Origin: Escherichia phage SHEFM2K | DNA: 64,000 nucleotides | Sequence record: PQ390715.1 | Strand: one strand, 5' to 3' | In this document: in pieces, positions 12,856 to 12,937 of the stretch | Position numbering within the stretch: position 1 is the stretch's first letter | Layout: every line of letters starts with the position of its first letter | Notes under the pieces: model-generated | The model's database searches: none | Told to the model about the DNA's origin: nothing | Seen by the model: only the letters and a program-made list of their open reading frames with translations | Translations under genes and position numbers: made by a program

Positions 12856-12937
12856 AGCTAACCCACCGGGTGCACAATTGTAACTATACTAAACTACTTT
12901 TTCTATAGATACACTCCCGCACCCTATGGGCTACGGC
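12856..12937. repeat. Inverted pair of motif M (long imperfect hairpin/cruciform potential)
   Basis: CTAACCCACCGGGTGCACAATTGTAACTATA ... TATAGATACACTCCCGCACCCTATGGGCTA. Confidence 0.5.

Follow-up and report, generated by a model that had tools for sequence, protein, structure and literature searches.

How is a short intergenic motif to be understood that recurs on both strands of a phage genome and lies close to promoters? The question arises in a stretch of 64,000 nucleotides from Escherichia phage SHEFM2K (PQ390715.1; the whole stretch is called the window here), where a preliminary description had reported a dispersed motif of 35 bp, here termed M, and had suggested either a DNA-binding site for a phage regulator or a conserved RNA module. 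Comparative analysis identified M as a strand-specific structured element, positioned to be the predicted 5′ end of the transcripts of one promoter class and confined to the early region in the terminal repeat of the genome. M very probably works at the level of RNA.

The core of M, CCCANNGGGTGC, has eight exact occurrences in the window, at 2690, 4696, 6361, 10923, 12862, 12919, 14823 and 15038; with one mismatch a single unrelated match is added at 55487. At up to one mismatch 0.88 matches are expected, and nine or more were reached in none of 100 shuffles. A covariance model of M (R1) was made from the relatives and applied to the window with cmsearch. The model recovered the eight core copies, all with E <= 2e-5, and in addition a partial diverged copy at 14868-14887 (-) with E 0.13. 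The motif had been described in about nine copies in both orientations, and eight full copies and one partial copy are found at all nine of the listed places. The inverted pair reported at 12856-12937 was recovered as 12853-12887 (+) and 12905-12949 (-), and the diverged inverted pair near 14815-14895 as 14803-14848 (+) and the partial 14868-14887 (-).

Read as RNA from 5′ to 3′, M starts at about 'CAU' and continues with a hairpin, P1, a YUAR linker, the 12-mer CCCAYAGGGUGC, a loop of six nucleotides (R-K-A-R-N-U), the stretch (G)-Y-R-Y-Y-Y and A-U. Profiling of the copies shows the 12-mer to be fully invariant at seven positions and at least 94% conserved at 10 of the 12. A second helix, P3, is formed by GGGUG(C) of the 12-mer paired with the downstream (G)YRYYY. 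In the consensus proposed earlier, the left part GTCACTA, which only three copies contain, corresponds to the 3′ strand of the variable hairpin plus the linker, and the right part, TGTAWCTAT, is recast as the Y-R-Y-Y-Y stretch complementary to GGGUG. The copies of M in the window and their predicted promoters are as follows (bit scores and E-values from cmsearch).

2676-2716, minus strand: M copy with no clear P1 stem (32.5 bits, E 1.6e-6; cauAGAAACAAaucag-CCCACAGGGUGC-auaaau-GUAUCU); an AGTACT box, two more promoters and the gene at 2454 follow downstream.
2723-2758, minus strand: promoter of the copy at 2676-2716 (promoter and terminator scans), with the -35 TTGACT within the terminator-like hairpin aaaGGGATTGACtccgGTCAgTCCCttt, then TG-n-TATTAT.
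4682-4727, minus strand: M copy (48.5 bits, E 1.2e-10) with P1 GACG-AGAA-CGUC, linker ACUAA and CCCAUAGGGUGC.
4736-4764, minus strand: promoter of the copy at 4682-4727, TTGACA-17-CATAAT, 11 of 12 consensus matches, with the extended -10 TG inside cAGTACTGg.
6347-6392, minus strand: M copy (38.5 bits, E 4.6e-8) with P1 UGA-GAGAUAGA-UCA, then CUAG, CCCACCGGGUGC and P3 GGGUGC/GUAUCU.
6399-6434, minus strand: promoter of the copy at 6347-6392 (promoter scan), with a terminator-like hairpin overlapping the -35.
10866-10894, plus strand: promoter of a stand-alone M unit, antisense to the gene strand, TTGACA-17-CATAAT with TG.
10903-10948, plus strand: M copy of the stand-alone unit (48.2 bits, E 1.5e-10) with P1 GAC-GAAACA-GUC, then ACUAA, CCCACCGGGUGC and P3 GGGUG/CGUCU.
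10975-11006, plus strand: bidirectional terminator hairpin AGGGGAUCAAUUGAUCCCCU with a U-rich tail (terminator scan of both strands; fold), which on the opposite strand ends the gene 11251-11000.
12812-12840, plus strand: promoter of the plus arm of a convergent pair (promoter scan).
12853-12887, plus strand: M copy, plus arm of the convergent pair, P1 weak or absent (28 bits, E 2.3e-5).
12905-12949, minus strand: M copy, minus arm of the convergent pair, on the gene strand (41.8 bits, E 6.4e-9), with P1 UGGC-AGAUAA-GCCG.
12956-12984, minus strand: promoter of the minus arm of the convergent pair (promoter scan).
14767-14794, plus strand: promoter of the copy at 14803-14848, directed to the physical genome end (promoter scan).
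14803-14848, plus strand: M copy (47.9 bits, E 1.7e-10) with P1 CGC-GAGAAA-GCG and P3 GGGUG/CGCCC; 94% identity over 49 nt in Erwinia phage Kaldavass.
14868-14887, minus strand: partial diverged M copy, the P3 half only (AGGGUGCGGGAGUGUAUCCU then seven U; 13.5 bits, E 0.13, model positions 25-44), which forms the convergent partner of 14803-14848 and, in the terminator scan, looks like an intrinsic terminator.
14982-15009, plus strand: promoter of the copy at 15018-15063, read from the sequence as TTGCTT-16-TATAAT with cAGTACTG in the spacer.
15018-15063, plus strand: M copy (43.9 bits, E 1.9e-9) with P1 AGUC-GAGAAA-GACU, then CAAG, CCCACCGGGUGC and P3 GGGUG/CGCCC; AAAATTCAGTACTGAAAA stands directly 3′ of it.

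The window derives from an Asteriusvirus-type jumbo phage of E. coli. A 5-kb piece around the finding is 95-96% identical to the PBECO4/121Q/G17/phAPEC6 group (Asteriusvirus), the genomes of which measure ~350 kb, and the segment 12780-13000 with the inverted M pair is 99.5% identical to G17 and Sharanji. The minus-strand arm of this pair is found with 81-86% identity in Klebsiella RaK2, K64-1, Cronobacter GAP32, Pectobacterium CBB and Salmonella Munch. The M-bearing region is annotated as a direct terminal repeat in vB_Ec-M-J, Muenster and CBB. Alignment to vB_Ec-M-J, where the repeat spans 1-21525 (21.5 kb), places the physical end of the genome at about position 16,460 of the window, and window 1-16,460 is accordingly taken to be the terminal repeat read inwards; the GC skew of the window also switches sign at ~16 kb. 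This early region is hyperplastic, with many small open reading frames (ORFs). The small genes of the repeat are on the minus strand, and its first 1.9 kb (14,450-16,400) is non-coding.

Every copy lies within 2.6-15.1 kb, and the covariance model found none over 16-64 kb of the window. The complete relative ECO103 4-12-1 (351,992 bp) carries nine significant copies and the partial one, all inside one 19-kb stretch; no significant copy was found by the model in the other 333 kb, and the 12-mer with up to one mismatch is present in the M copies only. The original observation thus withstood a genome-wide check for scattered copies. In total, 85 distinct copies were gathered from the window, GAP32, CBB, RaK2, Munch, 121Q and metagenomic jumbo contigs. 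M is kept in Asteriusvirus, Alcyoneusvirus, Mimasvirus, Munch-like phages, one Erwinia phage and the metagenomic jumbo contigs, and its conservation spans at least five phage genera on Enterobacterales, the hosts of phages with M copies including E. coli, Salmonella, Klebsiella, Cronobacter and Pectobacterium. Between genera, the promoter spacers, P1 stems, P3 loops and flanks have diverged, and the 12-mer and the pairing pattern have been kept. When viral contigs were scanned with an 18-nt pattern, many chance loci were obtained; real copies were present solely in jumbo-phage contigs and one 109-kb contig. No M was found in the terminal repeat of PA5oct, and the two abundant non-coding RNAs of that repeat are therefore not M homologues.

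A predicted sigma-70-type promoter is located 20-28 nt (from the -10) upstream of all eight window copies, on the same strand, and a -35-like (TTGACA-like) hexamer precedes 82 of the 85 distinct copies. The orientation of M is that of its promoter in every window copy and in every related copy inspected, and the related copies share the distance of 20-28 nt to a -10 element. The motif had been said to lie 'usually' just downstream of a promoter; this is true of all copies, not merely of most. These promoters form a class with TTGAC(A/T), a 17-bp spacer containing cAGTACTG, and an extended -10 (TGgCATAAT or TGcTATTAT). The -35 is buried in a terminator-like hairpin in three M-type promoters, and five of the eight M promoters are without a fused stem-loop. 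On the minus strand, at 11-38, 2731-2758 and 6407-6434, a terminator hairpin holds the -35 of the next promoter inside its stem and loop (aaaGGGATTGACtccgGTCAgTCCCtttgcTATTAT). The promoter at 11-38 is M-type with hairpin, and its M would fall outside the window.

Many perfect TTGACA-16-TATAAT promoters in the same region are without M, and from these a short leader runs directly into a ribosome-binding site and ATG. Such M-less leaders (those belonging to 2148-2175, 3458-3485 and 5842-5869, minus strand) consist of ACAU(C/G)AA, a GC-rich hairpin (GGGGAGA...UCUCCCC), ACUAA, a ribosome-binding site and AUG. The first half of M (start, hairpin and YUAR linker) looks, from its sequence, to be of the same design as these ordinary early leaders, and the second half is different. 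A second conserved leader of ~80 nt follows TTGCAA-16-TATAAT promoters at ~2517-2598 and ~12650-12733 (-). It reads ACAUCAGGACGGGGAACGAAAyAAGUAAC(u)CCCGUUAAGUAG.CCAGGAGUAAG.CA.ACGAAAAACUCCCCUGAUAAAAUAG, has hairpins of its own and is positioned between M and a third promoter.

The P1 stem has 3-5 bp of free sequence, and its loops (GAGAAA, GCGAAA, AGAACAA, AGAUAA) follow the pattern G-N-R-(N)-A-A, the final two A being more than 88% conserved. In the gap-free seed alignment all four pairs alternate between GC, CG, AU and UA. In the model-made alignment of 85 rows, 136 two-sided changed cells were counted against 50 in shuffles (reached by 0 of 500), and 90% of the cells are paired, compared with 32-55% when the partner is slid. 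As both alignments lean towards structure, an unbiased test was run: the upstream sequences themselves yielded stems of at least 4 bp in 48 of the 85 copies, and 500 shuffles of these sequences yielded 16.8 on average and never more than 29. The helix P1 is real.

At P3, the five pairs are 92-100% paired, compared with 32-55% when slid. Among the 425 cells, 188 are Watson-Crick, 225 are G-U (53%) and 12 are mismatched. Rare variants of the conserved strand are matched by the partner: GGGCGG/CCGUCC, GGGUGG/CUAUCC, GGGUGU/AUAUCU, GGAUGC with U and GGGUAC with U. P3 is thus kept mainly by wobble, a mark of selection acting on this strand as RNA and meaningless for duplex DNA. The minimum-energy fold of the copy at 15018-15063 is exactly P1 plus P3. 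The earlier suggestion of a conserved RNA module is supported by the promoter-tied orientation, the covariation of P1, the 225 wobble pairs among the 425 cells of P3 and its compensated variants.

RNAalifold chose P1 together with a further helix, P2, (R)CCC-AYA-GGG(U), which is a rival use of GGG. Because P2 is invariant, it is beyond covariation testing; the purine before CCC (A/G opposite U), C-to-U variants and one CCU/AGG double change lend it weak support. The mean free energy is -3.6 kcal/mol for P2 and -2.7 kcal/mol for P3, and P3 is the stabler in 42 of the 85 copies. Since the two helices share GGG, are nearly isoenergetic and are both marginal, the centre of M looks bistable in these folds, and a ligand would be needed to lock one form. 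Two further helices were considered and rejected. A pseudoknot of the P1 loop (AGAUA) with UAUCU suits the AGAUAA-loop subclass only, and UAUCU, judged by inspection, is not enriched there. A closing helix of 5′ CAUAG and 3′ CUAUG appears in single folds and is inconsistent among copies.

The module occurs in three settings: at the head of early operons of 2-4 kb, with further promoters downstream of it; in ~100-nt promoter-M-AGTACT-terminator units antisense to genes; and in convergent pairs of fixed spacing. The gene-strand copies 2676, 4682, 6347 and 12905 head early transcription units of 2-4 kb that start right after a terminator. An AGTACT box follows ~20 nt on, then one or two strong promoters with their own conserved leaders, and the first gene is found 135-330 nt downstream. 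The first gene after the copy at 4682-4727, 4180-4437 (-), encodes an 85-aa DksA/TraR-type C4 zinc-finger protein (Pfam PF01258, E 5e-11), which, judged by its family, may bind the secondary channel of RNA polymerase. Some Munch-like copies of M stand 36-38 nt ahead of an ATG. A gene for a protein beginning MPGQFRSK..., the N-terminal half of which is disordered and basic, is found at this distance after an M copy in Munch-like phages; the CBB annotation lists the protein as structural (CBB_38). A homologue of this protein with 37% identity is encoded at 49952-50485 (-), outside the terminal repeat and with no M nearby.

The opposite-strand unit at 10866-11006 consists of the promoter, M, TTCAGTACT and the bidirectional terminator of the upstream gene, with a predicted RNA of ~100 nt. 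The stand-alone layout with a U-rich tail on the M strand is kept in RaK2 and three Munch-like genomes, and four lineages have retained stand-alone units that end at bidirectional terminators. The copies 14803 and 15018 are directed to the physical genome end. An inverted copy is located downstream in 27 of the 85 copies, and 19 of these 27 share a core-to-core offset of 57 nt, which is present in the window pair (12853-12887/12905-12949), GAP32 and CBB. The transcripts of such convergent pairs would run through M and then anti-M, and long hairpins are predicted for them with z-scores of -4.9 and -5.3. Near-consensus Fur boxes (e.g. GATAATGATAATCATTtAC) were observed in Munch-like/RaK2-like phages, both close to the genome end and precisely between the members of convergent M pairs. 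A Fur box as a part of M was rejected, as Fur-like palindromes are absent from the window and from Mimasvirus.

What, then, would M do? On balance it is probable that M is a factor-binding 5′ RNA tag governing the fate of the tagged transcript or of its polymerase. M would be the conserved core of a structured RNA module of 45-55 nt with which one class of early transcripts, products of the host RNA polymerase (sigma-70), begins. A recognition tag for a trans-acting factor is suggested because 12 nucleotides are invariant across genera, the competing helices are weak and there is no complementary phage target. The factor bound to the tag may be a phage early protein, a conserved enterobacterial protein or RNA polymerase, and its binding would select one of the two conformations. 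The likeliest consequence would be control of the fate of the transcript or of the transcribing polymerase, either in a nut/put-like manner or via stability or processing. Stand-alone copies would then provide additional binding sites, act as decoys or be antisense units that can be switched. Any one particular downstream consequence is at best tentative.

Several points weigh against a factor-binding tag. The M promoters are consensus matches only, predicted from sequence. A P1 stem is undetected in 18 of the 85 copies, such as 2676-2716, where the loop-like AGAAACAA is present. The conserved strand of P3 is almost invariant, so that the support for P3 is mostly one-sided, and P2 and P3 are each weak (~-3 kcal/mol). 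Pfam searches of the genes downstream of M copies gave the DksA/TraR zinc finger only, and no N-like protein or candidate for the binding factor. If promoter cassettes evolve in concert, M could look more conserved than it is within a genome; comparisons between genera would be unaffected. Antitermination in cis fits poorly with those copies that are directly followed by a terminator and oppose all genes. An exception would arise if factor-dependent read-through into antisense were itself the purpose, for example in early shut-off. For the stand-alone and antisense copies, the tag or decoy model fits better than a cis-only antiterminator.

It is conceivable, though doubtful, that M represents a new class of phage regulatory RNA, a bistable two-hairpin tag that captures a conserved enterobacterial factor (RNA polymerase, a ribonuclease, an RNA chaperone or an RNA-sensing defence protein). 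Such a tag would be abundant within the first minutes of infection, being made from 8-14 strong promoters per terminal repeat and from two repeats. In cis, M would reprogram its own polymerase as put does, with an unrelated fold. In trans, it would act as a decoy, and the antisense and convergent copies would be dedicated decoy genes.

Among the alternatives to a factor-binding tag, trans-acting small RNAs have to be considered, which would base-pair through YUARCCCAYA or the whole 12-mer as seed and offer the terminator and A/U-rich spacer to Hfq. The stand-alone units do have the typical layout (5′ module, A/U-rich spacer, terminator and U-rich tail), the Y/R variation within the conserved stretch could be accommodated by wobble pairing to a fixed partner, and ARN repeats are present in the P1 loops and in the stem-less class. 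However, the majority of copies are operon leaders and the U-tails are interrupted. No site complementary to the core is found elsewhere in the complete 352-kb relative or in the window, which argues against a phage mRNA as target. A blastn search with the 58-nt M consensus against 5,426 E. coli genomes gave no match, although blastn is blind to 12-nt targets. We regard this explanation as unlikely.

M could also be functionless, a transcribed edge that hitch-hikes on a mobile or recombining terminator-promoter cassette (PeSL-like) and is homogenised by gene conversion. A terminator hairpin over the -35, as in PeSL, is indeed present in three of the eight M promoters (PMC4122927, PMC2839356), and the hyperplastic early region of small ORFs would suit such a cassette. 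Under this explanation, however, the 12-mer and the pairing would not be expected to be kept between genera while everything around them diverged, nor would compensatory changes in P1 and P3, and many perfect sigma-70 promoters of the same region lack M. A mere cassette edge is therefore rather improbable.

A double-stranded DNA operator, at which a phage or host protein bound at +25 to +55 would block or modulate elongation, is very unlikely. It would account for an invariant core at a fixed distance from the promoter, for the short inverted repeat ACCC-N3-GGGT and for the occurrence of copies in both genomic orientations. However, relative to the promoter the orientation is constant in all inspected copies, the flanking P1 covaries, and the downstream stretch varies only within G-U, G-C, U-A and U-G pairing to GGGUG, where the 53% wobble has no meaning in duplex DNA. 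A far better operator candidate adjoins M, the 14-bp perfect palindrome ATTCAGTACTGAAT. The proposal of a DNA-binding site for a phage regulator thus finds no support at M, and the palindrome (A)TTCAGTACTGAA(T) is a better candidate for one.

This palindrome, to which the flanks of AGTACT extend, is enriched 8- to 13-fold genome-wide. In the window there are 277 AGTACT sites against ~22 expected, with CAGTACTG occurring 61 times. The terminal repeat holds 114 (5.3 expected), most densely at 14450-16460, and the remainder of the window 163 (16.3 expected), 134 of them within ORFs. In the complete 352-kb relative, 919 sites stand against 119 expected (7.7-fold), and the next-highest 6-bp palindrome reaches only 2.3-fold. 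The M promoters carry the motif in their spacer and the second promoters in their UP region; it also follows ~20 nt after M, and it lies 12-45 nt past the core in 52 of the 85 copies. It is likely the site of a dimeric DNA-binding protein or another genome-wide signal.

A pseudo-ribosome-binding site with a mini-ORF (GGGUG, 5 nt, NUG and 1-8 codons) or a promoter-proximal attenuator/terminator (P3 and a U tract) can be set aside as highly improbable. It is true that GGGUG is Shine-Dalgarno-like, that AUG, GUG or UUG is suitably spaced in some copies (MYL* or start-stop) and that a U run follows P3 in a few relatives and in the partial copy 14868-14887. However, only 35 of the 85 copies have the start codon, with neither peptide nor length conserved, the G of NUG is accounted for by the C-G pair topping P3, and a U-rich tail is found in only 5 of the 85.

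The element bears on a group of phages of practical interest, as phage therapy already makes use of RaK2-like jumbo phages (Asteriusvirus, Alcyoneusvirus, Mimasvirus and relatives) and further use of them is proposed. Annotation of their early programme is all but lacking, and the terminal repeat appears as a series of 'hypothetical protein' genes. M marks a defined subset of the first transcripts and would give a handle on host take-over via the host polymerase. It is a candidate addition to the few phage leader RNAs that act without translation (nut, put), and its ~100-nt non-coding units are overlooked by annotation pipelines. In new jumbo-phage assemblies, the covariance model can serve to locate the early region and with it, probably, the ends of the genome.

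Some other features of the region and of the relatives were recorded. The terminal non-coding region contains tandem 13-bp repeats at 14508-14560 (ATTCAGTACTATT, four times) and recurring AGGGGAACTATCTTTC and CCATCCAGGG motifs at 14559-14601 and 15342-15357. A 79-aa early gene at 13686-13925 (-) has 84-88% nucleotide identity with many rV5-like and phAPEC8-like phages (~140-150 kb), which suggests a recent exchange between unrelated myovirus groups. A tRNA/tmRNA scan of the 64-kb window gave none. ECO103 4-12-1 (352 kb) is without any CCATGG, AGGCCT, AGCGCT, CCCGGG, CCGCGG or CGCGCG, of each of which 8-32 copies are expected; going by these counts, this looks like restriction-site avoidance.

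How does M compare with known systems? Rfam 15 gave no matches over the 64 kb at gathering score, and four weak matches over 1-16500 in E-value mode, none at an M copy. M is undescribed in the CBB, PeSL and PA5oct papers, and literal 12-mer strings in the literature match unrelated primers only.

The lambdoid nut sites and the rrn leader resemble M in being RNA elements just downstream of early promoters. P1 recalls the nut hairpin to some degree, having a short covarying stem of free sequence and a purine-rich, GNRA-like loop (GAGAA, GCGAA, GAACA), to be compared with the lambda loop GAAAA. As in the rrn leader, a conserved box of ~12 nt stands a few nucleotides from a hairpin, in the order hairpin then box. 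P1 loops have 6-7 nt, compared with 5 nt in lambda boxB, and 18 of the 85 copies are stem-less. The M box CCCAYAGGGUGC is unrelated to boxA and lies itself within two competing helices. For boxA (YGCUCUUUA) there are 31 matches against 26 expected, which is chance level, and none adjoins an M copy. Moreover, M has 8-14 copies per genome compared with 2 for nut, and ~40% of its copies oppose genes or end at a terminator.

The put sites of HK022 are likewise two small hairpins that open early transcripts of the host polymerase and are clade-specific. They act without translation, and by analogy M could do so as well. M differs in being shorter, multi-copy and on both strands. A search of the complete HK022 genome with model R1, filters switched off, had its best match at E 0.27, in unrelated places away from PL/PR; this search bears on the presence of M in HK022 and not on the resemblance of M to put. 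Membership of M in the nut or put family fails on the features that could be tested.

PeSL are promoter-terminator cassettes of T4-like phages (PMC2839356, PMC4122927). Like these, M belongs to a dispersed repeated cassette in the plastic early region of a T4-related myovirus, with near-consensus sigma-70 promoters. The fusion of a terminator stem-loop to the promoter is found at 2723-2758, 6399-6434 and 11-38, and this likeness concerns the promoter part only. The PeSL papers describe a stem-loop with -35/-10 only and no conserved transcribed element after the start site (PMC4122927), whereas M is the transcribed part and is conserved regardless of promoter subtype. P22 sar and lambda OOP share with M the convergent promoter pairs and the short antisense units ending at terminators, and the transcripts of an M pair would be mutually complementary. 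However, each of those RNAs is perfectly complementary to one gene, and they have no structured 5′ module in common, whereas M partners and unpaired copies share the module. An Hfq-type small RNA is matched, as a stand-alone unit with an intrinsic terminator, at 10866-~11006 and for a minority of copies. CRISPR-repeat mimicry (RNA anti-CRISPR) was considered and rejected: the copy 4696 agrees at 16 of 27 positions with a type I-F repeat, but the matching left part, GUCACUAA, is unconserved and the stems differ.

M is a new RNA family of a familiar kind, a phage early-leader/small-RNA element. What sets it apart is its multi-copy occurrence on both strands, the convergent pairs of fixed spacing, the apparently bistable core and the restriction to the terminal repeat.

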